The notes under the pieces are model-generated. The model saw only the letters and a list, made by a program, of their open reading frames with translations, was not told where the DNA came from and made no database searches. Shown here one piece after another: positions 3,803 to 55,157 of a stretch of 58,074 nt of DNA; the first letter of the stretch is position 1, and every line of letters starts with the position of its first letter. Both the position numbers and the translations under genes were made by a program. The stretch is from a virus (taxonomy: Duplodnaviria > Caudoviricetes). Location: positions 1-58,074 of IMG/VR virus record IMGVR_UViG_3300011337_000184. The stretch is one strand, 5' to 3'.

Positions 3803-3884
3803 CGTAATCTCCATGTTGGCGAGGCCCATTGCCTCTGAAAGCACTATTATCGTGTGGCAACTGCCCCGTCAACATCTATTTTCA
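3803..3884 (-). promoter_or_regulatory. Early promoter / stem-loop / RBS cassette, copy A
   Basis: TGAAAATAGATG-TTGACG...GATAATAG...GAGGCAATGGGCCTC-GCCAAC-ATGGAGATT. Confidence 0.6.
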
Positions 3885-19048: not shown

Positions 19049-19545
19049 CAGGTTTCCCCTTCGATTTCTGGAACTATACCAGTCTTTGCATTGTAAAGGA
19101 AGTATACACCTGCGGGCTTGCCAAATGTTCTCTCATAGAGCCGAATCTTGGCCTCGGTCCTGCTATTTGATAGTACACCAATCGCCAGCGGCAACTCAAG
19201 TTCTTCCGCCATGGTCTTAGCAAACTCTGCCAGCTTGCGCGCTCGACCACCCTTAGCTGCACGATACTCTGGGTCAACAAAGATTGCCTTCTCCTCAAGG
19301 ACAGGCTCAACGCTGTACCACACGGGGCCAATGTTTAGGAGTATCGCACCTTCAAGCTTTCCGCCAACGGTGTCACCGATCACGCCGACCAATCCGCCCT
19401 GCTGCGTGAGAGACTTCCAGACCTGATTGGCAAGCAGTGCGATGTCGGGGGCGATAAACGCATTCTCCTCAGTCGCCGCAATAGAGAGGCGCATCATCTC
19501 GTTAAAGTCTGCCGCCGTGCCAACGCGGACTGTGATCTCATCCAT
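19048..19545 (-). CDS. GNAT-fold protein upstream of ejection genes
   Basis: IFVDPEYRAAKGGRARKL acetyl-CoA-binding-like loop. Confidence 0.55.
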   Translation of the reverse strand: MDEITVRVGTAADFNEMMRLSIAATEENAFIAPDIALLANQVWKSLTQQGGLVGVIGDTVGGKLEGAILLNIGPVWYSVEPVLEEKAIFVDPEYRAAKGGRARKLAEFAKTMAEELELPLAIGVLSNSRTEAKIRLYERTFGKPAGVYFLYNAKTGIVPEIEGET

Positions 19546-31004: not shown

Positions 31005-31571
31005 TTAATCACTCCATATGTAGCTATCATCCCACAAGGATGCGTCATCCCATGGGTTTCTAAGGCTGGTCCCTGGAAATCCAACCTCTGGAACTTCAGT
31101 GTTACCATATGGCAAACCTGGGTCATTGTCACCTGGTGCATTTGGATCAGTGCCAGGGAAGTTATTAAGGCTGCCATTTGCAAAACCCGTCTGCTGTGTG
31201 ACACGCGGGTCATTATTTTCGGTAATGCGGGTGTCACCATCTGGCACCATCAGGCCAGTTTTGAGGTTCATGGTCGCAGGCAGGCTTGTCAGACGGTAAT
31301 TTGTCTCAGCGCGCTCAAACTGCTCTGGGCGCGGGTTCAGGATCGGCACGGGGTCTGCGGGCAGCACAATTGCGCGAAGCTGTTGCTGCGGGTTATCCGT
31401 GCAGTGATTGCACACCAAAATGCGCTTGTTGATAATAGAAGCACCAGCCCAGTCATACTGCCACGACAGGCTTGAATGGTTGTATCGGCCACCGCAGCGA
31501 TCACAAATAGCGTGCGCCTGCGGGTTGGTCCGCGACGTTCTCGCCTTACCTGATCTCGATGCGTATCCCAT
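31005..31571 (-). CDS. Conserved tail-region protein with CxxC...CxxC
   Basis: AICDRCG...VCNHC.D.PQ...NPRPE. Confidence 0.7.
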   Translation of the reverse strand: MGYASRSGKARTSRTNPQAHAICDRCGGRYNHSSLSWQYDWAGASIINKRILVCNHCTDNPQQQLRAIVLPADPVPILNPRPEQFERAETNYRLTSLPATMNLKTGLMVPDGDTRITENNDPRVTQQTGFANGSLNNFPGTDPNAPGDNDPGLPYGNTEVPEVGFPGTSLRNPWDDASLWDDSYIWSD

Positions 31572-32251
31572 TACCTAAAATAACCCCCCACCATTGGTGA
31601 GATGAACATGCCGACGTTCTCGACGTTCTGGTTGGACGCGATGTTGTAGCTTTCATCAGCCTGACCCTTGAGTGGCACGGCCAGTTGCGGGTTCCAGATG
31701 CGCGCCAGTCGGTATGTCAGGCCGTCAGCAAATGCCTCCAGCCACAAATAGGGAATTTCTACATTTTCGCCATTCTGCAGGTTTGAGTCCTGAATTTGGC
31801 GGACGCGGTAATACTTCAGGATCGTGGCTGACGTGCCATCAGGGACGGGCCACAACGTGATTGTGGGCGAGATCAGGCGATCATACCAAAAGGACGTGGT
31901 GAAGCCCTGCTGATCCTTGTTGGGGTACGAGGCGTACTCCGTGCGGCTGATTGGCATAATAATGCGGTCAATGCCCTGATCAGTGGTGGTGTAGGCGTCA
32001 AGGATCATCACGGTGTTTGGCTGGACCGCATATGTGGATTGCCCCTCGACCAGCGCCGTGGTGATCAGATCGACCGCCCACAGGTTGACCCCCTGATTTG
32101 ACCAGCGGGACAGCATCATGTTCGTCGCCATGCGGGCGGTATCCATATGCTCCTGCAACAATGCCGTCGGGCGAATGCCCAAATTCATATATGCATAAAG
32201 CACGATCTCGCCCAGACCTGGGTTGAATGTATATGTGCCGCTGGTGGTCAT
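31571..32251 (-). CDS. Head-tail connector / adaptor-like protein
   Basis: MTTSGTYTF, W.N.G.NLW, ISRTEYASYPNK, LWPVPD. Confidence 0.7.
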   Translation of the reverse strand: MTTSGTYTFNPGLGEIVLYAYMNLGIRPTALLQEHMDTARMATNMMLSRWSNQGVNLWAVDLITTALVEGQSTYAVQPNTVMILDAYTTTDQGIDRIIMPISRTEYASYPNKDQQGFTTSFWYDRLISPTITLWPVPDGTSATILKYYRVRQIQDSNLQNGENVEIPYLWLEAFADGLTYRLARIWNPQLAVPLKGQADESYNIASNQNVENVGMFISPMVGGYFR

Positions 32252-32254
32252 TGC

Positions 32255-32506
32255 TTAACACTTCCATGCTTTGAGAGACAGCGCCTTGCGTGTTGGTTTG
32301 CCGTTGTCATCCTTCATCGGGCCTTCCATGCCAGACATTCTAGCACAGAAAGACTTCTTCCTTGAAGCGTCTTTTTCAGTCTTTGGGTTTGGCGCTGGCG
32401 GCTTCAGGTTCATGCCCTGGGCCTTGGCCGACGCACGCCCCTTTGCATTTAGTCCGCCCTTTGGGTCTTTCCCTTCAGCGCGTTGCCATGCGGGTGTCTT
32501 TGCCAT
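32255..32506 (-). CDS. DUF6321-like basic small protein
   Basis: PAWQRAEGK.PKGGLNAKGRAS...RKKSFCARM...LKAWKC. Confidence 0.75.
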   Translation of the reverse strand: MAKTPAWQRAEGKDPKGGLNAKGRASAKAQGMNLKPPAPNPKTEKDASRKKSFCARMSGMEGPMKDDNGKPTRKALSLKAWKC

Positions 32507-34536: not shown

Positions 34537-35490
34537 TTACATGCCAGCGAAGTTGCGAGGCATCGCGTTGTTAAATCCGACTACGATCTTGTTGTAGCCA
34601 GCGGTTGCATCGTTGCCATTGATACCCGACAGTGGCGAAGATTGTCCTGGCAGGTAGTTTTGGATTGCGATGATGCGGAACGGCAGGAACGAGTTTGCAC
34701 CCGTCACGCCAGCCGAGGACAGCGTGAACTGGTCAGCAAACATGTCAGACAATCCCGTAGCGGTATTGCCGTTTGTCTCGCCAGTGGTGACGCTGTCATT
34801 CCACGCAAAGCCGATGTTCTCGCCAACGTTAGCTTGACCAACAGCGGTTGCGGTGGTGTTTGAGTTGCCAGTCTGCACCGAGAAACGAGCGTTTGGATCG
34901 GTGATGACGTAGGCTTCAACATCGTTTGCGGTGTCGGAGCCTGGCCAGTAGTTCGACCACACGGTGCGCTTTTGGGCGACCGACAGGTATTTGCAACCAG
35001 CAAACACGCCAGCAACTGGGGTATAGACTGTGACAACAGGAGTTGAGGTTGCCGAAGTTGCAGCGGTAGTGGTGGTGCTTTGGACAACAGCGGTCGTCGA
35101 GGTGGACGAGATGACCGTGAAGGCACCGTTTGGAACACCAGTTGCGTTCGTCACAACAATCGTCGAACCCACTGGGGGCGCGTAGTTTGTTGAGGCAAAG
35201 GTTGGGATGTTGGCGGTTGAACTTGCAATCGCGGTGTAGGTGATCGTCATCGCGCCAGTGGCGACGGTGGCAATACCAGTTGCAGACACGGTCAAGGTGA
35301 CGGGGCTGACGGCCTGCGCGATGTAGCCAGTACCCACGCCAGTGGCGTTGGTGGCCTGCATCACAGGGTCATTGAAGAAAATTGGTGTTGTATTGGTTGA
35401 CGCAATGGCAGCGCACGTCTGCTCATAGGTCGGAGCGGAACCAGTACCTGAGTACTGGGCAAAGCCGTTTGGCGCAAATGTATTCGCCAT
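34537..35490 (-). CDS. Capsid-associated protein (cement/decoration-like)
   Basis: MANTFAPNGF...IFFNDPV...GVFAGCKY...VITDPN; directly upstream of MCP. Confidence 0.6.
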   Translation of the reverse strand: MANTFAPNGFAQYSGTGSAPTYEQTCAAIASTNTTPIFFNDPVMQATNATGVGTGYIAQAVSPVTLTVSATGIATVATGAMTITYTAIASSTANIPTFASTNYAPPVGSTIVVTNATGVPNGAFTVISSTSTTAVVQSTTTTAATSATSTPVVTVYTPVAGVFAGCKYLSVAQKRTVWSNYWPGSDTANDVEAYVITDPNARFSVQTGNSNTTATAVGQANVGENIGFAWNDSVTTGETNGNTATGLSDMFADQFTLSSAGVTGANSFLPFRIIAIQNYLPGQSSPLSGINGNDATAGYNKIVVGFNNAMPRNFAGM

Positions 35491-35653: not shown

Positions 35654-36184
35654 TCACTCTGGGATGGGCATGGCTTCATACCCCTTCTTGATCTTTGTCA
35701 TCTCGTTGCCCTTGTTGGAGCGTTCAAACTCACCTGGCTTGGCCGCAGACAGTTGCTCTTCCTTGGCGCGGACCTGCAGCCGTGCGCGGCGGTTCTCAAT
35801 GGCGCGTGCCTCTTCCGTGATAACCAGTGGCCGCTCCATCAGCACCATCCCCTTGCGGATGATCATGGTGCCAGTGTAGCCCAGCGGCATCATCTCAGGG
35901 TGACGTGACGCTGGCACAATCTCCCATCCCTTACGGGCCAGAGCAACTTGGTGTGCGGGGTCTTCAGCGCCAAGGACTGTCCACATTTTCCACTCGTATG
36001 ACCACTCATCTGGGATGATGCCACGCTCAACAAAAAACTCGTCGCTCCCGCTGTCTGTGTTGCTGTGGTTTTGGAGTTCAGCAGCACGCGCCGCCGCATC
36101 CCGTGGTTTTTCCTTGGTCACCATAGCGGGCCTCACACTTGGGCGTACAAGCTTTGCCGCCTTTTGAAATTCATCATCGCTCAT
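35654..36184 (-). CDS. Conserved head-module protein
   Basis: IPDEWSYEW...GWEIVPASRHPE...GMVLMERP; between scaffold and capsid genes. Confidence 0.65.
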   Translation of the reverse strand: MSDDEFQKAAKLVRPSVRPAMVTKEKPRDAAARAAELQNHSNTDSGSDEFFVERGIIPDEWSYEWKMWTVLGAEDPAHQVALARKGWEIVPASRHPEMMPLGYTGTMIIRKGMVLMERPLVITEEARAIENRRARLQVRAKEEQLSAAKPGEFERSNKGNEMTKIKKGYEAMPIPE

Positions 36185-36996
36185 CTGATTTTACCTTCCT
36201 TGATAAGTGCAATCTTGTGCTTGGCGTAGTCCTTTTCGTCCATGCCCATGTCAGACGCAGCCTCTCGCTCCGCCGCAGACAGCCTCACAGCATTCTTGTT
36301 GCCATTGCTGGTGCCACGGCTCACAGGTGCCGCCGCAGGTGCCGCATCGCGACGCTGCGTGACCTTGGCGGCATACTGGTCGCCCGTGTCGTTTGTCTGT
36401 TTTGCCACGCCCAGCTTTGCCTCAATGGCCGCAAAGTACGCGGGGGTGTCAACGGAGATACCATCGTCAACCGCGTCCTCATGTGCGCGGATCATTTTGC
36501 GATTTAGGCGCGGGTCAGTGACAAATTGTGGATTCCTGCGGACCCAGTTGGCAGATGTGGACGACAGACGTGACGCAAACGCCTCAACGGGGTCTGCGGG
36601 GACGTATTGAGGCTCTGGCGTCTTGGGCTTGGAGTTCATTGCCTCCAGACCGTTGCGAAGCTGCTGCAATTGAGCGGCTTTTTCGCCCATCAACTGCTGA
36701 ATCTCAGCTATGCCATCGTAATCCTGATTGTGCATGGCAATTTTTAGGTTGCTTTTCAAGATTTCATTGTCACGCATCACGCTGTCAATGGCACTGGACA
36801 CCAATTGGATTTCAGTGTCGTCTTTTTCGCTGTTTGCGGCATGCGCACGCCGTTCCGCAGCAACGCGGGCCTCGCGTTCGGCGGTAATTTGACGCTTCAG
36901 TTCAGAAATTGACTCCTGAAGGTCGGGAACTAGCGCTTCCTCGACCTCAGTTTCGGGCGCATCGTCAACAATGATCTCGATTTCTTCTTCATCCAT
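36181..36996 (-). CDS. Putative scaffolding protein
   Basis: Acidic coiled coil; W..RNP.F; C-terminal VRLSAAEREAASDMGMDEKDYAK. Confidence 0.7.
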   Translation of the reverse strand: MDEEEIEIIVDDAPETEVEEALVPDLQESISELKRQITAEREARVAAERRAHAANSEKDDTEIQLVSSAIDSVMRDNEILKSNLKIAMHNQDYDGIAEIQQLMGEKAAQLQQLRNGLEAMNSKPKTPEPQYVPADPVEAFASRLSSTSANWVRRNPQFVTDPRLNRKMIRAHEDAVDDGISVDTPAYFAAIEAKLGVAKQTNDTGDQYAAKVTQRRDAAPAAAPVSRGTSNGNKNAVRLSAAEREAASDMGMDEKDYAKHKIALIKEGKIR

Positions 36997-37008: not shown

Positions 37009-37398
37009 TTAATAAACAGAATCTGGGTGGGGGGCGCGGCCTTTGATGCTGATGTCATCAAAAATACGGCACAAAACGCCATTTACGGTAATCGACCAGC
37101 CGTCGGACGGGCGGAAAATCAGCCATTCGTGGTCTTGGAACGTCATTCCCGTGAACCAGTTGCCATCCTGCTCAAATGCAAGAGGCCCGCGCTTGACCAA
37201 AAGGCCAACTTTGGACTGGTATTTGTCCTCGTCAAGGTGATCCGCCGTCAGGATCAGCCCTGATTTTGTTTTCTCTGGCCGAAGATACACGGCCAAAAGC
37301 ACTTGGTTGTGAAAAAGTTCAATTTCGGAGATGTCACCAAGTTGATCAAGCAGCTTTTGTGTGGGGTCTTCTTCATGGCTCATGGGCATATGTGGCAT
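37009..37398 (-). CDS. groES: Phage co-chaperonin GroES-like protein
   Basis: VLLAVYLRPEKTKSGLIL...VGLLVKRGPLAF...CRIFDD. Confidence 0.75.
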   Translation of the reverse strand: MPHMPMSHEEDPTQKLLDQLGDISEIELFHNQVLLAVYLRPEKTKSGLILTADHLDEDKYQSKVGLLVKRGPLAFEQDGNWFTGMTFQDHEWLIFRPSDGWSITVNGVLCRIFDDISIKGRAPHPDSVY

Positions 37399-37683: not shown

Positions 37684-39525
37684 TTATTTCTTGAGGTCTT
37701 TATTCATCTTTTCGCCGTAAGCTGCAACCTTCTCAAGGCGTGCCTTACCGCCTCCAGAGCCGCCAGTGATCGGATATACCACCTTGCCACCAGCCTTGCG
37801 GCCCATCATGGGTGGTGGCATTGGCGCGCCACCAGCGGGTGGCATAGGACCAGCGCCAGCAGCGCCAGACATGGCAGACATCAAACCTGGTGGCAGCGAC
37901 ATGTGCGCGGGTGGTGGCGCAGATGGCATTGGCGCAGGCATCGGTGGCATCGGCGGACGCATCATTGGAGGAGCGCTCATGGGTGGCATACCAGCGGGTG
38001 GCACGGGCATAGCGCCAGGCTTCTCGGCGTTGTGCGGGAAGATGTTAATGCTGATGTTGCTCTTGCCAACCTTGCCGCCAGTGGCGCGTGCCGTGCGGCC
38101 ACCGTCCATAATAGCGCCGCCACAAGCTTTGCACATGCAGTCCTTGTGGTGCATTGCCTTGCCGCCGTCTTTTTTCTCGGCAGTTTTGGCCGAATCTTTG
38201 AACGCATCAGCAGTTGGCGCACCCTTAGAACCGACTTTGCGCATCTTTTCCTTGGAGCCGTTTTCGATGCGCTCACGCTTGGCGTTGATGTTGGCATACA
38301 GACCGCCGCCATCTTTCTTGCCCATCGCAGCGCCACCGCAAGCTTTGCACATGCAATCCTTGTGGTGCATGGCTTTGCCGCCGCGATTGCGATCATTATC
38401 TTCATTTTTTTCTTGAGATGCTTTTGCAATATCGCGCAGATTGGCACCTTTACCTGAAACACCTAACCAATCCAAGTAATCAGGTGTTACTTCACGATTG
38501 TCCAATGCCTTTTGAAGCTGCTTTGGAGACATTGACTTGTATTTCTCGTAATTTCCAACAGGAGCCTTTGGTAGAATACCATCTTCATCATCCTTTTGAC
38601 GCTTGCTGCGCGCTGCCTTGTAAACTTCAGCACTAGTAAGACCCATGCTGCCGCCGCCCATCTTTGCGGTGCGACCGCCGTCCTTCATTTTGCCAACACC
38701 GTCAGCGGCAAAGAAAGGAACCTTCTTGCCGTCTTTTTCAACCATCTTCATCTTTCCGCCAGCAGCGTAACCCATGCTGCCGCCGCTCATCTTTTTGGAT
38801 GGCATGTCGTGCTTCTTGTCGGCGTCAGAGGCTTCCCATTCTTTCATGGTCATGCCGTGCTTCTTGGCCAGCTTCTTGTCTTCCATCATGTCCTTGGCGG
38901 AACCTTCAAACTTTTCAGCCTTGCCGCCGCGCTTGCGGCCCAAGGTTCTCAGGTCGTACTGATCTCTTTCCGCTGCTCGGTTTGCGCGTTCCAGGGCTTC
39001 CATAGCTTTAGCTTCATCCGCCGCTGCCATAATTTCTTTCATTCTTGCAGGAGATGGGCGAGGCATGGGCCGTGGGGACGATTTCATGCCACCTGCTGGC
39101 AGCATGCCCATCTCGTCCATCATTTCAGGAGTTGGACGGGGCATGGGACGTGGGGATGATGTCATTGGAGGCGTTCCGCCCTCTGCGTGGGCTGTGCGAC
39201 CGCCATTTTTCATACCGCCGATGTGCTTCTTGCCTTCGCGCTCTTCGTTGGCATCCTTGACGTTGCGGTTGACCAATGCATTTGCATACTCTGTCTTGCC
39301 GCCAGACTTGCGTGGCGTGCGGCCAGCGTGGGTCATGGCCTCAGCGCCAGCAACCTTGCCGCCGACCTTAAATGCGCGGCGCGAGATCGGGCGCATACCC
39401 GTCTTCACGTCTGCGTCCATAGGCTCGGCTTGTGTCCAAGTCGATGCGTCAACTTTTTCCGAAGTGGCTCCAGAGAGGCGCTTGGCCTTCTCCTTCATTG
39501 CCTCGCGTAGGCTTTTAGCGTCCAT
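37684..39525 (-). CDS. Low-complexity Met/Lys/Gly/Pro-rich protein with ~15 xxxGG motifs
   Basis: FKVGG, RKSGG, MKNGG, HAEGG, RKRGG, KMSGG, YAAGG, MKDGG, KMGGG, RNRGG, KKDGG x2, IMDGG, RATGG, RKAGG. Confidence 0.75.
   Translation of the reverse strand: MDAKSLREAMKEKAKRLSGATSEKVDASTWTQAEPMDADVKTGMRPISRRAFKVGGKVAGAEAMTHAGRTPRKSGGKTEYANALVNRNVKDANEEREGKKHIGGMKNGGRTAHAEGGTPPMTSSPRPMPRPTPEMMDEMGMLPAGGMKSSPRPMPRPSPARMKEIMAAADEAKAMEALERANRAAERDQYDLRTLGRKRGGKAEKFEGSAKDMMEDKKLAKKHGMTMKEWEASDADKKHDMPSKKMSGGSMGYAAGGKMKMVEKDGKKVPFFAADGVGKMKDGGRTAKMGGGSMGLTSAEVYKAARSKRQKDDEDGILPKAPVGNYEKYKSMSPKQLQKALDNREVTPDYLDWLGVSGKGANLRDIAKASQEKNEDNDRNRGGKAMHHKDCMCKACGGAAMGKKDGGGLYANINAKRERIENGSKEKMRKVGSKGAPTADAFKDSAKTAEKKDGGKAMHHKDCMCKACGGAIMDGGRTARATGGKVGKSNISINIFPHNAEKPGAMPVPPAGMPPMSAPPMMRPPMPPMPAPMPSAPPPAHMSLPPGLMSAMSGAAGAGPMPPAGGAPMPPPMMGRKAGGKVVYPITGGSGGGKARLEKVAAYGEKMNKDLKK
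38112..38382 (-). repeat. Duplicated GGKAMHHKDCMCKACGGA peptide (~55 bp x2)
   Basis: Near-identical DNA at ~38112-38166 and ~38328-38382. Confidence 0.9.
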
Positions 39526-41157: not shown

Positions 41158-44100
41158 TCATTTCCCCTTGGGCTTTAGGGCATCTATAGCAGACTTGCCG
41201 TCCTTGGTAAATCGGCGTGTAAGAGCAAGCGCCGCATCAACTGCGCCGCCCAGCTTTTTACCAAATCTGCTGCGGATTGATGCCATCAGGCTAATCTCTT
41301 CTGGCTTGATAAAGTCTTCGGCACCCTCATGGTGAGACAGGTGAGACAGGACGCCAATCTTTTGGGGGGCGAAGATGGTGTCTTCGGTGCGGGCTTTGCG
41401 GTTATGTTCACCATGGGGGCCATAATTCAGCCAGCTATTCTGACCGCGTGTCTCAGAGGTCATGGCCATGCGTGCAAGCGGCGAAAACATGGCCGCGTGT
41501 GCGCGCCATGCGTTTTCCTCGCCATCTGCACGAAATCCAAGGCCCTCTTTTGCGTGACCGTAATAATCGTGAATTGCGCGAAATACATCATTCACCGTAA
41601 CGGGAATGCCGTTCCACTTCTCGCCAGTAAGCTGCAGCAGTGGGTTCTTTTTTGCATCATCCTCGCTGATTGGTTCGCCGCTTCCATACCCAGAGTAGGT
41701 TGGAAATACCCACATGTGGTGGTTGTTGCGAATATCTTCAGTGGCAAGGCGGGGTGACGCTTTGTATGGGTCTTCCTGTTTTCTTGGGTTCCAAAACTCA
41801 ATATTTAGTCCCGATTTTTTTGCGGCGCGGTATTGATCCATCGTCTCCTTGATCATCGCATCATACGATGCCTTGGTCAGGGGATCATTGGGATTGTCTT
41901 CCATGGCTGTGTAATCCGACGCAATGCGCGCCGCCCGCTTGGGATCAACCTTAGCGTATTTTGTTGGGGGGCTGTACGGCAACCCAGACTGCGCCATGTA
42001 GTCACGCGCAACCTGCCGAATGCGTGGGTCTGCGCTTGCTCGAATAATCTGCCCCGTCAAAGGAATGACTATTTTTTGGGGTAGACCTTCAAGAGGTGCT
42101 TCGTTCTGTGTTTGAAGAACGCCAGCGCCTCCTCGTATTCCTCCTGCGTTGGGAAGTTCTCCCGCTTGGGGGCGTGTTGCGTTATCATTGGGGGCAATTT
42201 CTGTTCCGACATTTAGTTCTCCATTTTGATCAGGTGTTCCGCCAGTTCCAAATCCGATGCGTCCGCTCTCGTCGTCGGGTAGCGAGTGATATATTTTACT
42301 GGCATTGTCTATTGTCGGATCAACCCCAGCATTTTGAAAGATGGCTCTCGGCATAGAGGCTGCCAATTTACCATCAGGTCCGACACCTTTGTTGCCATAT
42401 TTTTGAAATTGATTGCGAATACCATTTTGGTCGGCAGCCTCACGAGAAAACTTCAGCATGTCGTCAATTTGTTTGAAATGTCCATCTTTACTGCCAATCA
42501 TTGAAAGATTGGGATTTGGTCCCGCCTTGGCCCGCATATAATCGCGCCAACGGTTCCAAAAGTCATCTTTGGTATTAATTCCAGCTTTACGCATTCTGAG
42601 CATGTGCATGCCGTTTGCAGGTTCTTCCATTTGAACTGCGTCTTCTTTTTGTTGGTCAATTTCGCCGCCGCCGCCCTTTACAATTCTGGGTCTGCCGCCG
42701 ACCTTGTCGTATTTGTGCAGGTTGTTTTCGAACCACTCCAGCGGGACAGTGGTGACTTTTCTGTCCGCGTCTTGTGTTTCAAATTCCAGTGCGGGGTAAT
42801 GATTGTTGAACAGTTTCGTCATGTTTGGGGATGAACTGACGTGTTTTACAGTAAATCCTACAATTTTTTCGGGATCGTAATTGGGCAAACCGTTGTATTT
42901 AAACATGTCGCCTATTTGAAAATTGTCAAACGCGCCACTGGCGTGCGCCATGTCAAATGCCTTTTGTGACTCTGCGTACTTATCGGCCAGATCGGCAAAC
43001 ATATTTTGAGCGCCGTAACTGTGGTCGCCCGACATAATGTCCCGCTTGGTGCGGACTGTTGACAGGTTTGTTACGTTGTTATCCACCTCGCCACCCTCGG
43101 CTTTGTTCATGTGCTTCTCCTTAGGGTCAAACTTGCCGTTGTTCCAGATCGACTTAATCTGCTGCGGCTCCTTCAGTGCCACCACAAGGTTGCCGTTCTG
43201 ACTGGCAGGAACCCACGAGTCATGGCCCTTGGCGCGAAGTGTGTCGAACCAGTCGGACTGCGCCGCCTTGTAATTGTCGCGCAAATACTCCTCTGGCAAC
43301 TCGCCCGTGTAGGGGTTTTCCGCCTTCACATAGGCTGGGATGACGCGGGACGCGGTGTTGGTGGGCGTCAGCTTCCATCCGTCCTGCTTGTATCCTTGGC
43401 TGTCGTTCTGTTCGGCGTACGATGACGCAGCTTCAGGATCGCGCACGAACCACGCGCCGTGACGGCCCACGTTGTGAGAGGTAAAGTCCTTGTCCTTGCT
43501 GGTGCCAGTGTACAGGACATGTGGCTCCCCATTGGTGTGGGTCACGCTGTTGCCAAACCAGTTGCGGAACTCGTCGGTGTCGGTGACGCGGCCACCCTCT
43601 GCCTTTGGCTGCGCTTGCGGCGACAACATATTGACTGAACTGTCCCTGTCGATGGCGGAGAAAACATCTTCTAAGCTGGCGTCTGACGCGCTGTACGGCC
43701 TGCGCCCCAGACGGTATGCGGTTGTTGCGGCAGCCTTAGATGATACCTGACCCATAAGGGCTGGGTGACGCTCCATGGCTTCGGCCTGCAGCATCTGCCC
43801 AATGCCCTTGCCACGGTGTTCCTCTGGGACTTCAAGCCCCAGAACTGAAGCTGGTCCATTGCGGCGCTCTAAGACTTCAATATGACTGCCTGTCTCTGGG
43901 TGAACGTACCGATGGATCATCGCCCCATCGCCAAAAATGCCTGAACCGTCTTTGCTTTGCACTGTAATTGCGCCACCCCCCGCCTTGGTGATGTCGGGGT
44001 CGGTTGGGTCGAAGTTGCCGTTGTTGCCGATGGCGCTCTTTACCTGTTCAGGCTTGAAGGCAACGTACTCTTTTGAACCGTCAGGGCGGTGGGCAATGAT

Positions 44101-46311
44101 GCCGTCAAAGCCAGAGTTGCGGATTGTCTGGTGTATCTTGTGTTGGCCAAACTGGTTGACCATTGTGCCATCTGGCGTATCGCGCAGAAAAAGGTCGCGC
44201 ACGGTCGCTGTACCGTCATCCAGCTTCTGAATAAGTTGTTCACTACTCTCTTTTGCGTTGTTTGAGTTGGTAGGATTCAACCACAAAGCTTTCTTGACCT
44301 CATTCTTAATGTAATCTTTCCATGCTGGATGGCGTAGAACACTGTCAGTAAATGGGTTTTTCATGCTGACGTGCAGCTTGAACACTTGACCGTGCGGCCT
44401 GGCTTCGGCACTTTCACCGCGAATACCTTGGGCAAAGTCGCTGGCAACCTTTGGGCTGTCAGACAGGTAGATGCCAGCGCCGTAGTTACCATATTCAGAC
44501 GGCTTGAATGCGCGGAAATCTTGCGATGCAATATTTCGGTCGGTTGCCTCTTGGTCAATCTCGTCAGTCCAACCCTTACGTTCAATTCTTGGAATACTAC
44601 CATGATACAAAACATCGGGAACCAGAGGGTGGTTTCCTTCTTGAAACGCCGCTTTACCCACAGGGCCACCATCGGCTTTGGTGATGTCTGGGGTGTCTGA
44701 TGCCATGCCAAAAACCCGATCTGGGTGCATGGGGCCATCAACATTTTCAGCGCCGTTCCAGTATCTGACCTCGGCCTTTACCTTTGGGATGCCAAGGGTG
44801 TGGGCCACAGCAACCCGCGTGTTGCCCTCAAGCAGGTATGGCTGGCCATAATGGTTCACGGCCACCACAACCTTATTGCCCTTCTGATCGTGGTCAAAAC
44901 CACCCTTTTGGGCGTCAGATAACAGGTTGTCGTACTTATGAACGCCCGCAGTCCGCGTTTCGTCGTTCATGCCAGCAATGCCCTTCAAAATATGGGTGGG
45001 CAAGAACATGCTTGACCTGCCGCCAATGACTCCAGTGATGGCACCAGCGACAAACTTCCTGTCTGGATATTGGGCAGCCCGTGCCTGCTTTCCTTCAAGC
45101 CATTCACCGCCTGGGTTGTCCTGTGTGAAGTCGCGCTTGCCTTCAACGTTGCCACCGCCTCCCTTCGTAATTGATTGTTGCTGAATGGCAGATGGGTCAG
45201 TAACAATGTAAGAGTGATCTGGAGTGACGAAACTGGTCATCCGACCCTCTTCCATGTCCTTCCATGTCGGACCAGCATCAAAATTGTTCATGTAGCGCAG
45301 GGCTTTAATGTTTGATTTTGACAAAGCTTTGGAAAAAAGAACGTTCTGGGCTTTCATCGTCTCGTCAGGGTGGCTGATCCTATTTTCAATGTCCTGAAGG
45401 CCGTCATAGGTCTTGTTGAATGTGTCAGAATCGATTCTGCCAGTCCCGTGCAGATGGTCTAGGATGTCGTAGAAGTCAAACCTGTTTGATGCCGCAGGGA
45501 TGTCAACAATCTGCTCTGGGCGCGCATTGATCTTGAACGCCTTTGGCGAGACTTTTTCTGCCATGTCTGGCCGACCCATCAGAGATTTTACTGCTGCGTT
45601 ATGCGCCAAGTCTGGGTTTGCAGCAAAGTGAATGCCAACATCGCGGGCGCTCGGACGAAACTGACCGACAATGTTTTCTGGGGATGCGTGATAGGCGGTG
45701 ATGCCATCGGCACCATTCTCGCGGCCACCATCAGCGTGGACGGCGCGAGGTACGTTGGGCATGTATTTGGACGGGGCGATCTGGCCACCAGCGCGGTTCT
45801 TTGCGGTAATGGCGCGGGCAAGTTCCATCGCGCCGCCCGTGGAGTAGCCTTTGACTTTTTCAGTTTCTGGATCATACCCAAACGGCATCATCCTATTAGC
45901 GGCGCTTTTACCCACGCCTGCCGCTCGACCTACGTTGACAGCCTCGCGAACAATATCAGCCCTTTGCCCCATGTCATCGTAATTATTTAGGCGCTTCTTC
46001 CACATTTTAGTGGCATCATCGGAAAGCCCAAGAGGGCTTGGCATCATTTTTCGCCCAATATCGCTTTCAGCTACATCATACAATTTTGACGCAATGCCCA
46101 TACGCCTGAAGTCTGGATGCACCTCAACCCTTGTGGCGTATGGAGCGCGGGAAGAAAGGTTCATCTCCCCAACCCTCTGGCCATTATGCTCGGCAATATA
46201 GGTATCGCCGTACTGTTTATAGATCGACAGAGGCCCATCTTGGTGCAAAAGTTTCTTGTCCATACCCTTGGCCGTCAGCTTTGCCGCACGGATCGCCTTG
46301 TCCTTGTCCAT
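41158..46311 (-). CDS. Large polyvalent protein: 2 GNAT, 3 ADP-ribosyltransferase-like, ParB-like and HDxxGH domains
   Basis: VEVHPDFRRMGIA; LEVPEEHRGKGIG; AYHAS..GIHF; LYHGS..GIYLS..GFDGII..EYVAF.PEQVKS; F..WFG.S..EP.VLYTGT; LLEGNTRV; AIHDYYGH. Confidence 0.75.
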   Translation of the reverse strand: MDKDKAIRAAKLTAKGMDKKLLHQDGPLSIYKQYGDTYIAEHNGQRVGEMNLSSRAPYATRVEVHPDFRRMGIASKLYDVAESDIGRKMMPSPLGLSDDATKMWKKRLNNYDDMGQRADIVREAVNVGRAAGVGKSAANRMMPFGYDPETEKVKGYSTGGAMELARAITAKNRAGGQIAPSKYMPNVPRAVHADGGRENGADGITAYHASPENIVGQFRPSARDVGIHFAANPDLAHNAAVKSLMGRPDMAEKVSPKAFKINARPEQIVDIPAASNRFDFYDILDHLHGTGRIDSDTFNKTYDGLQDIENRISHPDETMKAQNVLFSKALSKSNIKALRYMNNFDAGPTWKDMEEGRMTSFVTPDHSYIVTDPSAIQQQSITKGGGGNVEGKRDFTQDNPGGEWLEGKQARAAQYPDRKFVAGAITGVIGGRSSMFLPTHILKGIAGMNDETRTAGVHKYDNLLSDAQKGGFDHDQKGNKVVVAVNHYGQPYLLEGNTRVAVAHTLGIPKVKAEVRYWNGAENVDGPMHPDRVFGMASDTPDITKADGGPVGKAAFQEGNHPLVPDVLYHGSIPRIERKGWTDEIDQEATDRNIASQDFRAFKPSEYGNYGAGIYLSDSPKVASDFAQGIRGESAEARPHGQVFKLHVSMKNPFTDSVLRHPAWKDYIKNEVKKALWLNPTNSNNAKESSEQLIQKLDDGTATVRDLFLRDTPDGTMVNQFGQHKIHQTIRNSGFDGIIAHRPDGSKEYVAFKPEQVKSAIGNNGNFDPTDPDITKAGGGAITVQSKDGSGIFGDGAMIHRYVHPETGSHIEVLERRNGPASVLGLEVPEEHRGKGIGQMLQAEAMERHPALMGQVSSKAAATTAYRLGRRPYSASDASLEDVFSAIDRDSSVNMLSPQAQPKAEGGRVTDTDEFRNWFGNSVTHTNGEPHVLYTGTSKDKDFTSHNVGRHGAWFVRDPEAASSYAEQNDSQGYKQDGWKLTPTNTASRVIPAYVKAENPYTGELPEEYLRDNYKAAQSDWFDTLRAKGHDSWVPASQNGNLVVALKEPQQIKSIWNNGKFDPKEKHMNKAEGGEVDNNVTNLSTVRTKRDIMSGDHSYGAQNMFADLADKYAESQKAFDMAHASGAFDNFQIGDMFKYNGLPNYDPEKIVGFTVKHVSSSPNMTKLFNNHYPALEFETQDADRKVTTVPLEWFENNLHKYDKVGGRPRIVKGGGGEIDQQKEDAVQMEEPANGMHMLRMRKAGINTKDDFWNRWRDYMRAKAGPNPNLSMIGSKDGHFKQIDDMLKFSREAADQNGIRNQFQKYGNKGVGPDGKLAASMPRAIFQNAGVDPTIDNASKIYHSLPDDESGRIGFGTGGTPDQNGELNVGTEIAPNDNATRPQAGELPNAGGIRGGAGVLQTQNEAPLEGLPQKIVIPLTGQIIRASADPRIRQVARDYMAQSGLPYSPPTKYAKVDPKRAARIASDYTAMEDNPNDPLTKASYDAMIKETMDQYRAAKKSGLNIEFWNPRKQEDPYKASPRLATEDIRNNHHMWVFPTYSGYGSGEPISEDDAKKNPLLQLTGEKWNGIPVTVNDVFRAIHDYYGHAKEGLGFRADGEENAWRAHAAMFSPLARMAMTSETRGQNSWLNYGPHGEHNRKARTEDTIFAPQKIGVLSHLSHHEGAEDFIKPEEISLMASIRSRFGKKLGGAVDAALALTRRFTKDGKSAIDALKPKGK

Positions 46312-48609
46312 TTACTTCCCCTGTTTGCGGAGTTGCATTGCCAGCTTTACGGCGTCTGCGGCGTGGTCACGCTGCTGCATATCACGTTCGTGCTGCATCC
46401 GAACAGCATCATTCATCTGGTCGCGGTCCATGCGCATTTGTTCAACCCGCAAATCCTTTTCTCGGTCGAGGTCGCGGTTCTGGTCGTTCATCTGGTCACG
46501 CTGCATGGAGAACTCCATCTGGCGCGCCTTGTTTTGCTCGGCCATCATCTTGGATGGGTCCACGGGCTGCCCCTGCGGACCCTGCGGTGCGCCAGATTTT
46601 GACTGCGCGCCGATCATGGCTGCCTGCGCACGCATGGTGTCGGCGTCGGCCCTCTGGTGGGCGATCTTGATCTCCTCAACGCCCTTCAGGAACTCAGGCG
46701 GCGGCTGCTTGGCTTCGGCGGGCTTGAGGAATTGCTCAGGGTTCGACCAGCCGATGGCACGCAGCGCGGCCTTGTCGATGGCTTCCTCGTCATACATCTG
46801 CGGGTTTGCGGCCTGCAGTTGCTTCAACGCCATGATCTTCATCACGCGCTGGGCGTGGCTTGACGTGTTCGGGTCTGCCTGCGGCACCAGTTCCACGTCG
46901 TTCAGCGCCTGCATGAACAATTCCTCATTCCACTGGACGGTGGGCTTGCGGTTGCGCTGCCAGAAACTTTCGGGATGCTCACGGAAGCACTTCAGAAGCA
47001 GGGAAAATTCCTCAGCCTGCGCTGAGTGCATCCGCTTGTGGACGGCGTTCATAATCTTGGTGGCTTGGTCGATCATCGCCAGTGTGGTGCCGACGGGCGC
47101 ATCTGCACGGCCCTCACCCACCTGAGCCTCGGACGTGCCGCCGACACGCATACCAGTCTGAGACATGTTCTCCACCAGTGACATCAGCGCGCCCGATGGC
47201 TCCTTGTACGGCAGCGGCATCACGGCCTGATTGATTGGCATTCCGCCAGTCTTGATCTGCGCCGACCCGCCAGGCGGGATGCGGAATATGTTTGTGTTTT
47301 GGCGCGATCCAGTGTCGCTGACCAGAAACCCTGGGAAGTTGGCGTACATGCCAGCGTCCAGCAGTTCTCGCCACGCGGCGGTGATGGCGTTGGTGGTGTT
47401 GCCGAGGATGTGCAGCAGGCCGATGTCGTAAAAGCCAAGGCCTGGGACAAATGTATACTTCACAAAGTTGGTGCGCGCCTCTGGCAGGTCTGCGGTGTCC
47501 TGATCAAAGTTGCGGGTGATTGACAGGATTTTGCGCGACGACACGTCAATGGTGACGCGGTACGGGATTTCAAGGCCGCTGGCCTTGCCCTTGTACTTGT
47601 GTTCATATCCGCTGATGTCCAACTCGCAATAGACCTCGTAAATCTCGCGGTCGCGGTCTTCTGGGTTGGCCGACGTGGCGGTGATGCCCTGCTGCGAACT
47701 CTTAGCGTCCTGCGCGGCGTCGGGCGAAATCTCCTGCGGCGTGGACAGGTCGGTGTCATCATAGACGCCAATGATCTGCAGGCGCTTGACCGTACTGGGG
47801 CGCATGTACACGCGGTGCGTGACGCGCTTGGCGTTGGACAGGTCAGTGGCGGCGCTGTTGACGATCAGGTTGTCGGCGTCCACGCTCTCGCTGACGGGGC
47901 GGTTGCGCAGCGGGCAGAAGTAAACCTTCTTGAACGACGTGCCACCAAAACCCAGCATCAGCAACATGCGGTCTGTGTCTGGGTAATACTCCCGCGCCGT
48001 GCTGGTCAGATAGTGGTTCATGTCCTTCTCAAGCGCGTTGGCGATCTCGTCGCGCTGCAGCGTGCTGCCGTTGGCATCATCCCGAATCTTCACGGGGCCG
48101 TCGGTAGGCAGCAGTTCGGAGCGTGCGTTGGCCTGAAAGCGCAGGACGGCTTCCTGCAGCAGCGGGTGGCGAACCTTTGACATGCCTTCAATCGGCGCGC
48201 CGTCAGCCGCACCATTCAGCCCAGGGATTTCAATCTTGAGGCCCAGCAGCTTGATGCCTTGGGCGCGATCTTCGATCCACTCGCTGCGGCTCTCAAGGTC
48301 ATCCTCGACGCCACGGATCAGGTCGTCGGCAATGTTTTGCAGTTCTTCGTCGTCAATCTCGCTAACAAGGTTGTCAAACCAGCCCTCTGGGGGCGTCTTC
48401 TCGTTGTCGGCGTCCTTGAGTGGCTTACCATCCAGCGACAGCGTGATTGAGCCGTCGCCGTGTTCGATCTTGAGGATCGCACCGTCTTGGGAAATTTCTG
48501 GAATGTCTTCAGGCTCCGCGTCATCATGCTCAACGGTTACATCCATCGGGCCAATCGCGGCATCAGCTTCATCATCATGCATACGGATATTTGGGTTCAA
48601 GCCTGACAT
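46312..48609 (-). CDS. Portal protein
   Basis: SRSEW, HPLLQEAVLRFQA, GTSFKKVY, YTFVPGLGFY.IGL.H, LLDAG, APVGTTLA; downstream of terminase. Confidence 0.9.
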   Translation of the reverse strand: MSGLNPNIRMHDDEADAAIGPMDVTVEHDDAEPEDIPEISQDGAILKIEHGDGSITLSLDGKPLKDADNEKTPPEGWFDNLVSEIDDEELQNIADDLIRGVEDDLESRSEWIEDRAQGIKLLGLKIEIPGLNGAADGAPIEGMSKVRHPLLQEAVLRFQANARSELLPTDGPVKIRDDANGSTLQRDEIANALEKDMNHYLTSTAREYYPDTDRMLLMLGFGGTSFKKVYFCPLRNRPVSESVDADNLIVNSAATDLSNAKRVTHRVYMRPSTVKRLQIIGVYDDTDLSTPQEISPDAAQDAKSSQQGITATSANPEDRDREIYEVYCELDISGYEHKYKGKASGLEIPYRVTIDVSSRKILSITRNFDQDTADLPEARTNFVKYTFVPGLGFYDIGLLHILGNTTNAITAAWRELLDAGMYANFPGFLVSDTGSRQNTNIFRIPPGGSAQIKTGGMPINQAVMPLPYKEPSGALMSLVENMSQTGMRVGGTSEAQVGEGRADAPVGTTLAMIDQATKIMNAVHKRMHSAQAEEFSLLLKCFREHPESFWQRNRKPTVQWNEELFMQALNDVELVPQADPNTSSHAQRVMKIMALKQLQAANPQMYDEEAIDKAALRAIGWSNPEQFLKPAEAKQPPPEFLKGVEEIKIAHQRADADTMRAQAAMIGAQSKSGAPQGPQGQPVDPSKMMAEQNKARQMEFSMQRDQMNDQNRDLDREKDLRVEQMRMDRDQMNDAVRMQHERDMQQRDHAADAVKLAMQLRKQGK

Positions 48610-48664: not shown

Positions 48665-48904
48665 TCAACGCACCCCGTTTCTAGACAGGATTTTGATCAT
48701 CGTCCGCTTTACCATAAGCTGGTACTTTAGGCGGCTGACTTTTTTTGTGTCATGGTCCCACTGGGCGTCATGCTTTTCCGTCAGTATGGCGTCGATCTCG
48801 TCCCGAAGGCCGATGGCGATCCTGTCCCTGTCCATCTGATTGGCGGGGATGTCCCCAAGGCGCGAGAGTGCGGCCTTCTTGATTTGCTGGTGGCTTGAGG
48901 TCAC
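48665..48904 (-). CDS. Hypothetical protein
   Basis: GTGA overlap with upstream ORF. Confidence 0.5.
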   Translation of the reverse strand: MTSSHQQIKKAALSRLGDIPANQMDRDRIAIGLRDEIDAILTEKHDAQWDHDTKKVSRLKYQLMVKRTMIKILSRNGVR

Positions 48905-49566
48905 TCAAACACCGCCTCCACGGGGTTGTCAGCTAATTCTTCAAGCATTTTTGCAGCCTTCCTCATTACATCTGGGTTGTCCTTGAACGCTCCAAGTCCC
49001 CTGTTGCAGTGAGCGCACAAGATAAACCTGACGCGCCCACTTTTGTGGCAGTGATCAGTATTCCAGCCCGCCTTTGAACCAGCGTCCGTGGATTCACAAA
49101 TAGCGCACTTACACCCTTGGGCATTAAACATGGCCTGCCATTGTTCTGGCGTCATGCCGTAATTTGCCTTCAGTCTTGTGCGCCGTTTCTTGTCTGGGTC
49201 TGCATTTTTTCTTGCGTAATCACGAGCATATTCTCGGCTTTTTTCAAGGTTTTTGTAATAGTGCTTTTTTGCCCTTTCCCTGCCACTTTTTGCTTTATCC
49301 TCTTCACTCATGCGAGGCCTACATTTCCTTCCATCTGGCTTGCCTATTACCTCGCGCTTTGCTTTGCGGCGATTCACGGTGCGCTTTGAGTGGCAAGATA
49401 CACACCAAGGGATATGCCCGCGAATAAGTTTTGGGTTTTTGTAGAACCCGCACTCTGGTGAATTAACTCCGCAGTTGGCGCAGGTGTACTGTGCGTACAC
49501 CCGCTTTTCATTTTCACCCAAAGATGGCTGGGGTAGGATCGGTTGATTGCCCTTGATATTTTCCAC
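48901..49566 (-). CDS. Endonuclease VII-like homing endonuclease
   Basis: YGMTPEQW..M...QG.KCAIC...DHCHKSGRVRFILCAHCNRGLG.FKDNP; N-terminal CxxC pairs. Confidence 0.85.
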   Translation of the reverse strand: MENIKGNQPILPQPSLGENEKRVYAQYTCANCGVNSPECGFYKNPKLIRGHIPWCVSCHSKRTVNRRKAKREVIGKPDGRKCRPRMSEEDKAKSGRERAKKHYYKNLEKSREYARDYARKNADPDKKRRTRLKANYGMTPEQWQAMFNAQGCKCAICESTDAGSKAGWNTDHCHKSGRVRFILCAHCNRGLGAFKDNPDVMRKAAKMLEELADNPVEAVFE

Positions 49567-54286: not shown

Positions 54287-54370
54287 CTCAGTCTCTCCAG
54301 TTTGGTGAGGCACCATGCCCCGTGTGACCTCAGTAACATACCCCATCGAGGCCAGCAACAACTATTTTCA
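54287..54370 (-). promoter_or_regulatory. Early promoter / stem-loop / RBS cassette, copy B
   Basis: TGAAAATAGTTG-TTGCTG...ATGTTACTGAGGTCACA...GGGGCATGGTGCCTC-ACCAAACTGGAGAGA. Confidence 0.6.
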
Positions 54371-54862
54371 TGGATAAGGCAATCTTCCGTACTTGATCGC
54401 CCGCTCGGCCTTGGCCCTGAACCCACGCGACCCGATGATTTTAATGTATCGGTGTTTACGTGGCCGTGGTGCCAGATAGAAATCATCGCCGTATTTGTCC
54501 CGCATGACCTGCGCCTGATACACCACGCCACGGTGGCCCTGACTGATGTCGGCAAAGGAGATCACGATGTGGTCGCCGCCGATCATCCGCAGGCTGGCTG
54601 ACACCAGCATCGACGCGTCGTTCTTGATGTTGTGATCCAGCACCAATCTGTTCAATTCCAACACAGACCCCGCAAAATCGGCCCCCGCGATGCCATTGCG
54701 CAGAGGGCTGGATGCTGGGGTGCCATACGTCACACAGCCCACCAGCGCCCCATCCCTGAACAGCCCGAATGCGTGGCTGATCGAGGGCCAGCGGTGGGCG
54801 TAATGCACCCCCAACACCAGCCTCTCGCACTCCGCCCGCGTGATCTTAGAAATTATAATCAT
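54368..54862 (-). CDS. mom: Mom-like GNAT DNA adenine-modification protein (possibly internally deleted)
   Basis: HYAHR, FGLF..G.LVG.VTYG.P, LELNRL, ISFAD..QGH.G.VYQA, KHRY. Confidence 0.7.
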   Translation of the reverse strand: MIIISKITRAECERLVLGVHYAHRWPSISHAFGLFRDGALVGCVTYGTPASSPLRNGIAGADFAGSVLELNRLVLDHNIKNDASMLVSASLRMIGGDHIVISFADISQGHRGVVYQAQVMRDKYGDDFYLAPRPRKHRYIKIIGSRGFRAKAERAIKYGRLPYP

Positions 54863-55157
54863 AATACCGACGTGGCTCTTCGGACACCACGTAGCGGTCA
54901 CCGTTGCGGTCATACCACTTGCCATCCTTGCGCAGTCGGATGCGGATCACCGGGCCGTCGAGTTTCGGGGTGATTTCCCACCGCTGATCCTCACCATTGG
55001 CCACGTTGCCCAAAAACCCACCGCCGAAGAATTTCTTCTCCCACTCCAGTTCGACCGCCGCCATCTCGCGCACTTCAAGCAATTTGTCATTCACCACGCG
55101 GATAACCTCGAAGGGGTGGATGTCGGTCCAGCCAATCATGTTTGCGTATTTCGTCAT
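54846..55157 (-). CDS. Conserved early phage protein
   Basis: GGAGA RBS; ends RYYDYNF. Confidence 0.7.
   Translation of the reverse strand: MTKYANMIGWTDIHPFEVIRVVNDKLLEVREMAAVELEWEKKFFGGGFLGNVANGEDQRWEITPKLDGPVIRIRLRKDGKWYDRNGDRYVVSEEPRRYYDYNF

Follow-up and report, generated by a model that had tools for sequence, protein, structure and literature searches.

A Gly-Gly-punctuated protein of exchangeable mini-peptide cassettes in the head module of aquatic phages, a candidate virion-packaged carrier

A string of cassettes between constant ends

We investigated a gene in the head module of an uncultured freshwater tailed phage (Duplodnaviria; Caudoviricetes), represented by a 58,074-nt stretch of DNA, hereafter the window, that spans positions 1 to 58,074 of the IMG/VR record IMGVR_UViG_3300011337_000184. 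The gene encodes a 613-amino acid (aa) protein, hereafter the cassette protein, in which, judging from its sequence and those of its relatives, two constant ends (aa 1-117 and aa 477-613) flank a string of exchangeable mini-domains tethered by a basic Gly-Gly (GG) hinge (Table 1). The composition is dominated by Ala (12.9%), Gly (12.9%), Lys (12.6%), Met (8.6%) and Pro (8.5%), with 79 Gly, 77 Lys and 36 Arg residues and a net charge of +43. Ratios of nonsynonymous to synonymous substitution rates (dN/dS), calculated against the counterparts in four related loci (L002, L010, L017 and L004), ranged from 0.15 to 0.35 at the N end, from 0.11 to 0.20 in the middle and from 0.07 to 0.14 at the C end, where the lowest values of the two closest comparisons (0.07 and 0.11) were obtained. 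By these comparisons, this is a real gene, with the parts common to relatives under purifying selection. The protein matched no Pfam family at E<=0.01, so that the KGG repeat PF10685 is also unmatched; a sequence search of the PDB with the cassette protein and the two proteins encoded upstream of it, of 1717 aa and of the DUF7178 family, returned no matches, and the ESM Atlas matches for the cassette protein and the downstream protein p176 were all unnamed viral clusters. No RNA run was among the 20 sequencing runs listed for the genome.

An AlphaFold2 model of the cassette protein, built with 103 family sequences, had a mean predicted local distance difference test score (pLDDT) of 58.9, with 294 of the 613 residues below 50. 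Values of 75-95 were confined to islands at residues 1-18, 131-140, 150-195, 210-240, 258-275 and 320-380, within which the model places helices at 3-18 and 131-140, a long helix at 159-194, a three-helix unit at 210-239, a beta-hairpin at 261-270 and a helical unit at 327-381. These islands coincide with cassettes, and the residues with pLDDT below 50 include the conserved ends, the basic cassette that we call LYANI and the His/Cys peptides. The N-terminal region contains invariant columns in the family alignment and is predicted to be disordered beyond its helix; the C-terminal region has a Pro/Met-rich tract as well as a strand-like motif and a basic tail that are both conserved. The model thus depicts a beads-on-a-string protein, with small folded islands along a disordered string, and the conserved disordered parts are likely to become ordered upon contact with DNA, metal, capsid or another partner. 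In a fold search against 48,161 PDB representatives, the best Z score was 4.6 and all matches were to the single long helix (150-207). A predicted complex of the major capsid protein (MCP) with aa 477-613 scored 0.00 with a mark of 0.32, which counts neither for nor against an interaction.

Table 1. Coordinates of the cassette protein gene, its parts and related or neighbouring genes in the window
Feature	Position	Strand	Remarks
Cassette protein gene	37684..39525	minus	ATG-started open reading frame (ORF), 613 aa
Constant N-terminal region, aa 1-117	39175..39525	minus	segments N1, N2 and N3 with two short spacers
Variable cassette array, aa 118-476	38098..39174	minus	from family architectures and contig joints
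Pro/Met-rich peptide and long-helix cassette, aa 118-201	38923..39174	minus	pLDDT 87-95 at helix 159-194
EGSAKD helical cassette, aa 202-249	38779..38922	minus	in 118/120 family members, also on other carriers
KMKMVEK beta-hairpin cassette, aa 258-284	38674..38754	minus	in 36/120 family members
AT-rich cassette, aa 293-383	38377..38649	minus	core aa 324-372
His/Cys peptide, copy 1, aa 384-398	38332..38376	minus	H-x3-C-x-C-x2-C
LYANI basic cassette, aa 409-455	38161..38301	minus	phrog_16028 member
His/Cys peptide, copy 2, aa 456-470	38116..38160	minus	H-x3-C-x-C-x2-C
Constant C-terminal region, aa 477-613 and stop	37684..38097	minus	conserved
SU10-type portal	46312..48609	minus	not adjacent to the cassette protein gene
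1717-aa polyvalent protein	41158..46311	minus	two ART-PolyVal domains and GNAT domains
Phage GroES-like co-chaperonin	37009-37398	minus	weak Cpn10 and phrog_3188 matches
Scaffold-like gene	36181..36996	minus	end parts of protease-scaffold families only
p317, 317-aa Thr/Ala/Ser-rich protein	34537-35490	minus	between p176 and MCP
Free-standing 83-aa DUF6321 (PF19846) mini-protein	32255..32506	minus	E 2.5e-26
Second GG-punctuated protein, 375 aa	19556..20683	minus	9 G-runs, internal tandem repeat, two Y-V-I-P motifs

Gly-Gly runs and the junction motif

All segments of the cassette protein are bounded by its 22 GG or GGG runs (25 overlapping GG), which hold 47 of the 79 Gly residues and place GG at every module boundary. 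In 10,000 composition-preserving shuffles, the number of runs was 8.8 +/- 2.3 with a maximum of 17, so that 22 was never reached, and across the 120 family members described below, the median is 17 runs compared with 8.3 expected (median z 4.0, minimum 1.7). The initial annotation of this locus, made from the DNA alone, had counted about 15 xxxGG motifs, usually followed by K or R; the punctuation proved denser than stated, with 19 matches to [FRMHKYI]-x-x-GG and K or R after 12 of the 22 runs, and Gly-rich composition alone does not account for it. The four peptides quoted in that annotation are all present, and two further features that it pointed out are exact: the duplication of the His/Cys peptide is visible at the DNA level, where 38106-38167 and 38322-38383 form a 62-nt direct repeat with 87% identity, and an AT-rich stretch, with a GC content of 0.39-0.42 at 38375-38599 compared with 0.53-0.65 elsewhere in the gene, occupies precisely one GG-to-GG unit. 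The GC content of that cassette, 0.436, is below that of the gene (0.559) and that of the window (0.533).

The hinge is a sequence motif that extends beyond glycine, the consensus [K/R]-K-x-G-G-[K/R] ending each cassette. Among 995 distinct junction contexts, the position two residues ahead of GG is occupied by K in 46% (3.8-fold over background), by A in 16%, by P in 8% and by M in 6%, with K or R found three residues ahead in 42% and directly after GG in 44%. At the DNA level, GGYGGYAAR occurs 24 times in the window, compared with 5.05 +/- 2.32 expected, 8 of the 24 copies lying inside the gene, and the codon GGC encodes 34 of the 47 Gly residues in runs compared with 50 of all 79. We do not claim a dedicated DNA recombination signal at the junctions because this microhomology is largely expected from the protein motif and codon usage.

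Turnover of cassettes among relatives

A word-seeded HMMER search, in which 8000 candidates were scored, yielded 1538 proteins of 337-1073 aa that match the cassette protein at E<=1e-3; no longer or fused form (1074-3065 aa) was found at this threshold, which is weak evidence that none exists. The best 120 proteins, including the query, were cut at their G-runs into 2255 segments, and those of at least 12 aa were grouped into 72 clusters, one cluster that held two merged cassettes being split by motif. Common parts comprise N1 and N3 at the N end, EGSAKD, LYANI (116 of the 120 members) and, at the C end, the Pro/Met-rich region (all 120) and a short basic tail. Other cassettes are optional, namely, the His/Cys peptide, often present twice (97 members), the long helix (87), KMKMVEK, LADLKK (33), AAERD (11), VPEYNEE (10) and DDEPKKGPY (9), along with dozens of rare ones, many of them singleton clusters. 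Cassettes range from 5 to 100 aa, with Met-, His- and Cys-rich types occurring in relatives and 5-10-aa units such as R-T-A-K-x-x-G-G recurring as spacers; the AT-rich cassette has no counterpart in the other relatives among the 120 listed.

The long cassettes occur in 96 different orders in the 120 proteins, and these orders conflict: the His/Cys peptide lies ahead of LYANI in 41 cases and behind it in 32, DDEPKKGPY and KMKMVEK occur in both relative orders (4 vs 2), and LADLKK is found on either side of EGSAKD or LYANI. The homologues are thus not collinear from end to end, in agreement with the modularity that the initial annotation had proposed.

Among the 31 loci used for close comparisons (30 from IMG/VR, plus L001), two, L002 and L010, encode an MCP 100% identical to that of the window over the 281 aa compared, a GroES-like protein 98-99% identical and a scaffold-like protein 96% identical, and their versions of the cassette protein differ from that of the window by whole cassettes. 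Ends of the blastn alignment blocks (61 distinct internal ends) fall within 3 aa of a G-run in 37 cases, compared with 28% expected, and within 2 aa in 27, compared with 22% expected (binomial p 8.5e-5).

Joints could be placed precisely in lake and river contigs from three other freshwater studies that are at least 88% identical to the window. Contigs of two sequencing runs, X13 and X14, skip 38383-38682 (aa 282-381, a spacer plus the AT-rich cassette), with three other bases in place, and in run X16, 38383-38641 is swapped for 70 other bases. In a lake contig of X13, aa 104-196 are swapped for 215 other bases (joint 38939->39215), and X14 is without aa 443-476, which include the second His/Cys copy (joint 38097->38198); in X13, an overlapping stretch, 38099-38269, is swapped for 66 bases. 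The N-terminal ~36 residues occur in two forms among these contigs. Taken together, the sequence comparisons show that cassettes are gained, lost, duplicated and moved at the hinges, even between phages with capsid proteins identical over the compared part. Given the purifying selection on the common parts, the gene diversifies by cassette exchange rather than through relaxed constraint.

The same cassettes as tiny genes and on other carriers

LYANI matches the profile of phrog_16028 over its full length (E 6.9e-21, residues 408-452 on profile positions 5-49 of 50) and is found in 45 phage records. In the Autographiviridae phages Eistla, HTVC168P, KBS-P-1A and S-SBP1, it is a 49-52-aa ORF located between the scaffold and MCP genes and adjoining an ORF of the DUF6321 family; in CRP-4, CRP-810 and P-GSP1, its context is non-structural or unclear. 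The ORFs of the T7-like phages begin 4-7 residues ahead of LYANI and stop near the end of the cassette. The tiny phage proteins of phrog_16028 and DUF6321 are thus direct homologues of cassettes, which in T7-like marine phages are separate ORFs of ~50-80 aa without GG junctions.

An exhaustive HMMER search of 1.84 billion representatives with the AT-rich cassette returned 12 matches, of which 8 are small proteins of 52-106 aa that are 45-61% identical over the core; six of these, at 52-69 aa, correspond roughly to the core alone and are predicted stand-alone proteins. An alignment of seven sequences has 12 invariant columns. No stand-alone relatives of this cassette were found in viral contigs, and a candidate in the metagenome locus L036 was rejected as a chance 32-residue match inside a 660-aa tape-measure-like ORF. 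Another cassette, c37, matches ORFs of 59-60 aa (8 matches, 50% identity, E 3e-13), KMKMVEK occurs on mini-carriers of 64-80 aa in other phages (14 matches, up to 92% identity), and the VPEYNEE-like and c28 cassettes each match one other small ORF. Small-ORF matches of cluster c0 were disregarded as Pro-rich, low-complexity or antisense frames. By sequence, truly free-standing tiny-ORF homologues therefore exist for three cassettes, LYANI, the AT-rich cassette and c37, which bears out the suggestion in the initial annotation that several of the peptides resemble small stand-alone ORFs.

Beyond the family itself, 2639 shorter proteins share its cassettes, and one small carrier matches at least 588 IMG/VR stretches. 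We retrieved 120 short proteins with the middle region of the cassette protein, 22 of which are fragments of the family. LYANI is present in 113 of the 120, with GG directly ahead of it in 109 of these and a G-run within 60 aa closing it in all 113. In the proteins outside the family, LYANI is strung via GG to other mini-peptides, to DUF6321 or, in P0150, to the N end of a homologue of the 375-aa protein encoded in the window (Table 1). A few short, conserved tags recur at the C ends of these small carriers, one tag per carrier; one type ends in S-C-W and another has the form R-G-x-G-A-A-x-K/R-G-x-x-F/Y. Minimal carriers are made up of a tag and no more than one or two cassettes. A tag of the R-G-x-G-A-A-x-R-G-x-K-F type also ends gp32 of HTVC023P (L035 8873-9610), a 246-aa low-complexity protein encoded just after the portal.

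The window itself carries a free-standing DUF6321 gene directly upstream of the SU10-type adaptor gene (31571..32251), that is, in the MCP-adaptor position. In the same slot of other phages, DUF6321 is fused to LYANI via GG, and split and fused forms occupy the same genome position in L087 compared with L095 and L102. DUF6321-like sequence is also found at the C end of several longer PHROGs family profiles of 141-928 positions. Judged by gene content and position, other aquatic phages encode the same cassettes as free-standing tiny genes or on small carriers in their virion modules.

The 375-aa protein is itself GG-punctuated, its repeat units ending in ...DMVNGGG and ...DMF[DN]GGG, and is without a Pfam or PHROG match. 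From position alone, between a phrog_3287 'virion structural protein' and a 1293-aa tail-lysozyme protein, it would be part of the virion module, and a weak-GNAT ORF of 165 aa (19048-19545, minus strand) comes next. A profile comparison (hhalign) of the cassette protein family with the 375-aa protein was rejected as evidence of homology, giving an 11-column junction match with a probability of 0.35%. Yet another K-x-G-G-punctuated protein, of 361-456 aa and in some cases His-rich, is encoded in L087 (4239-5534), L095 (4328-5413) and L102 (3670-5040), where it comes after the MCP and a Thr-rich protein, the MCPs being 33-36% identical to that of the window. These proteins suggest that GG stringing is a wider habit of this phage supergroup.

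Genome neighbourhood

Transcription in the head module runs from high to low coordinates, in the order small and large terminase, portal, 1717-aa protein, DUF7178 protein, cassette protein, GroES-like protein, scaffold-like protein, p176, p317 and HK97-type MCP, with the SU10-type adaptor and tail genes further on. The initial annotation had correctly assigned the gene to the head module, between portal and GroES/scaffold; the portal gene is not adjacent, the genes of the 1717-aa and DUF7178 proteins lying in between. In the 1717-aa protein, ART-PolyVal domains lie at aa ~597-767 and ~927-1059 and GNAT domains at aa 35-85 and, more weakly, ~806-847, and over 800 aa are without a family match. 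The protein p317 is 82-98% conserved in close relatives and ~40% conserved over about half its length in others, and may be a decoration or head-fibre protein.

The MCP of the window shares 93% identity with its counterpart in a 61-kb Manatee Spring phage genome; against the MCPs of HTVC023P-type pelagiphages and of CRP-901/902, identity drops to 38-42%. The block from GroES through scaffold, p176 and p317 to MCP follows the cassette protein gene in 25 of the 31 closely compared loci; of the remaining six, five are cut short and one represents another phage. Genes for other carriers, examined in 40 loci of at least 11 kb, lie between a relative of the MCP (33-41% identity) and a relative of the adaptor in 19, ahead of GroES-scaffold-MCP in 5 (the lineage of the window), just after the adaptor in 2, and with one of these markers in 4.

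Comparison with known systems

Polyvalent proteins of phages and conjugative elements, the phage ones being effectors described in the introduction of Iyer et al. (2017, PMC5512222) as packaged in heads and injected, offer the closest parallel. As portrayed there, they share with the cassette protein the many modules per polypeptide, highly variable architectures and gene positions beside portal and head genes, and the likeness is direct at this locus, where the 1717-aa protein two genes upstream is a bona fide ART-PolyVal and GNAT member. In contrast to the enzymes and effector domains that form the modules of polyvalent proteins in that account, the modules of the cassette protein are peptides of 5-100 aa without Pfam domains, joined by a fixed K-x-G-G-K/R hinge, and neither a zincin-like peptidase nor any other processing domain turned up; the terms 'glycine', 'linker' and 'low-complexity' are not mentioned in the main-text passages of PMC5512222 consulted. 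Because it carries no recognisable effector domain, we regard the cassette protein as one that would work like a polyvalent protein, without calling it one.

Other parallels are more distant. The internal proteins and prohead-core peptides of phage T4 are small, basic, packed in the head and injected with the DNA, evolve fast and in some cases counter restriction; they bear an N-terminal targeting sequence and are cut by the gp21 protease at L/I-x-E sites, whereas for the cassette protein no protease and no motif of the L/I-x-E type was found, and its peptides are concatenated. Core-protein precursors of adenovirus and polyproteins of African swine fever virus are cut at G-G|X by clan CE proteases, and there, too, G-G bounds basic, DNA-associated peptides of the virion core. 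KGG-repeat hydrophilins (PF10685), which resemble group 1 late embryogenesis abundant proteins, are hydrophilic, disordered and punctuated by K-G-G, as opposed to the heterologous cassettes seen here, which are not one repeated unit. The cassette protein resembles an already known class of modular, fast-evolving and presumably virion-borne phage proteins, and no published description of it or of its motif was found in the literature searched; proteome tables in supplementary files could bear on virion content. DUF6321 is likewise not mentioned in that literature, nor is a gene of this kind in the part of the HTVC023P literature consulted (PMC9599517).

A possible virion-packaged carrier and its alternatives

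We favour, at about an even chance, the reading that the cassette protein is a virion-packaged carrier of exchangeable mini-peptides, a small-peptide counterpart of the neighbouring ART/GNAT polyvalent protein. Under this model, the protein would be synthesised late and loaded into the head together with the DNA by means of its constant ends, the C-terminal tag being the better candidate for the address because minimal carriers elsewhere keep only this part. Once packaged, it might either stay on the DNA as a polycationic partner or enter the cell with the DNA, and entry would bring in small peptides that bind DNA, metal or the host, in a combination specific to the lineage. The GG hinge would serve mainly as a flexible joint that tolerates recombination. 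Binding of DNA or metal is plausible given the strongly basic character of the protein, its two H-x3-C-x-C-x2-C peptides and the Met-, His- and Cys-rich cassettes of its relatives.

Several observations weigh against this reading. None of the 120 listed homologues contains a Pfam domain, which leaves the cassettes untied to known effector activities. The whole gene is in no cultured phage of a 50,697-record collection, the only record with it, in a shorter version, being the metagenomic genome MW202675.1. Pairwise protein alignments (1057 insertions of at least 10 aa in 269 pairs) showed no clear enrichment of gap ends at GG: in 9.0% of the insertions, the two ends each lay within 3 aa of a G-run, compared with 5.7% by chance, and in 51.8% either end did, compared with 42.5%; slippage among near-identical junctions is probably the cause. 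No virion proteomics was found for any relative, and gene position is weak evidence given that LYANI lies among non-structural genes in CRP-4 and CRP-810. The cyanophage scaffold-MCP gap that holds LYANI also carries hli and psbA, and 10 of the 40 carrier loci lack a relative of either MCP or adaptor, two of them having a relative of the 375-aa protein.

If the protein were instead a polyprotein precursor, a phage or host protease would cut after each G-G and free the cassettes in the head or in the infected cell, the 5-10-aa units being spacers as in prohormone precursors, an explanation we hold to be fairly unlikely. Cleavage at GG as such, which is doubtful and would leave the rest of the carrier reading unchanged, would explain why the motif and the spacers exist and why fused and free forms are equivalent. 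It fits with a junction that is a sequence motif rather than glycine alone, with cassette limits that are also those of free-standing homologues such as the T7-like LYANI ORFs, with the split and fused forms at one genome position and with the many GG-to-GG units too short to fold. However, no peptidase family was detected in 38 ORFs scanned against Pfam, 18 ORFs scanned against PHROGs and three segments of the 1717-aa protein, scans that left aside small ORFs and some plus-strand ORFs and could miss a novel protease. Specifically, no C5/C48/C63-like protease was found in the ORFs scanned, nor was there a C39 peptidase match; unlike double-glycine leader peptides, which are C39 substrates with one N-terminal leader ending in GG, the cassette protein has 22 internal GG runs. 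In the scaffold-like gene, similarity is limited to positions 153-330 of 330 of Mu-like_Pro and to 174-335 of 339 of phrog_328; we take these to be the scaffold halves of the two protease-scaffold families. The spread of GG carriers over many phage lineages, which differ in host, makes one dedicated protease hard to place, and head-protein processing is not known from T7-like phages. The residue two positions ahead of GG is typically K, not the hydrophobic residue of the consensus for adenain-type GG proteases. Of the precursor idea in the initial annotation, the modular part thus holds, and the cutting at GG finds no enzyme among the ORFs scanned.

We consider it unlikely that the role is structural or physical only, that is, that an uncleaved, polycationic, disordered protein resembling RGG/KGG boxes neutralises or organises packaged DNA, or acts as an accessory scaffold, with cassette identity being minor and drifting neutrally. 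The charge, the prevailing disorder, the head-module position and the conservation of the constant ends, greatest at the C end in close relatives, are all consistent with this role. Yet the common cassettes in the middle of the protein are under purifying selection, and single cassettes are 45-92% identical across distant phages, unlike neutral filler; moreover, a separate scaffold-like gene exists. More improbable still is that this is an intracellular host-takeover or anti-defence protein, not present in virions and merely encoded within the late operon. Its hyper-variable cassette content resembles accessory or counter-defence loci, and LYANI ORFs are found among small non-structural genes in CRP-4 and beside lysozyme in CRP-810, but the position of the gene between the polyvalent/DUF7178 genes and GroES-scaffold-MCP is strictly conserved, other carriers lie between MCP and adaptor in 19 of 40 loci, and LYANI is fused to the homologue of the 375-aa protein, which is assigned to the virion module by position only.

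The virion-packaged carrier reading can be extended to a bolder one, rather unlikely in our estimate, in which aquatic podophages share an 'alphabet' of mini-proteins, encoded as tiny genes or strung by K-x-G-G-K/R on carriers with C-terminal address tags. These carriers would be loaded into capsids and cut at GG by an unrecognised protease, and the resulting mix of peptides, particular to each lineage, would be injected to counter host defences or to handle DNA. If true, phages would possess an equivalent of polymorphic-toxin cassette systems and of the GG polyproteins of eukaryotic viruses.

The family, with its 1538 near-length relatives and 2639 shorter cassette-sharing proteins, is large and occurs in freshwater and marine phage groups that are abundant and related to HTVC023P-type pelagiphages, and no part of it has a known function. 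The cassette protein gene is the fastest-changing gene of an otherwise near-identical head module, a pattern usually seen in host-virus conflict. Should the cassettes prove to be delivered peptides, the 72 clusters in 120 proteins would amount to a natural library of dozens of small phage peptides, complete with natural swap variants, and the constant ends and GG hinges would constitute a simple rule for loading capsid cargo. The findings would also provide a context for orphan families such as phrog_16028 and DUF6321.

Other genes of the window

Apart from the head module, the window encodes a Mom-family protein (54368-54925, minus strand, E 5e-26), which suggests, by homology, DNA modification by the phage. 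Also present are a primase with Prim-Pol, PriCT-2 and DUF3987 domains (3882-6173, minus strand), an SF2 helicase (9211-11025, plus strand) and an endonuclease VII with an N-terminal extension of ~130 aa (48901-49566, minus strand).

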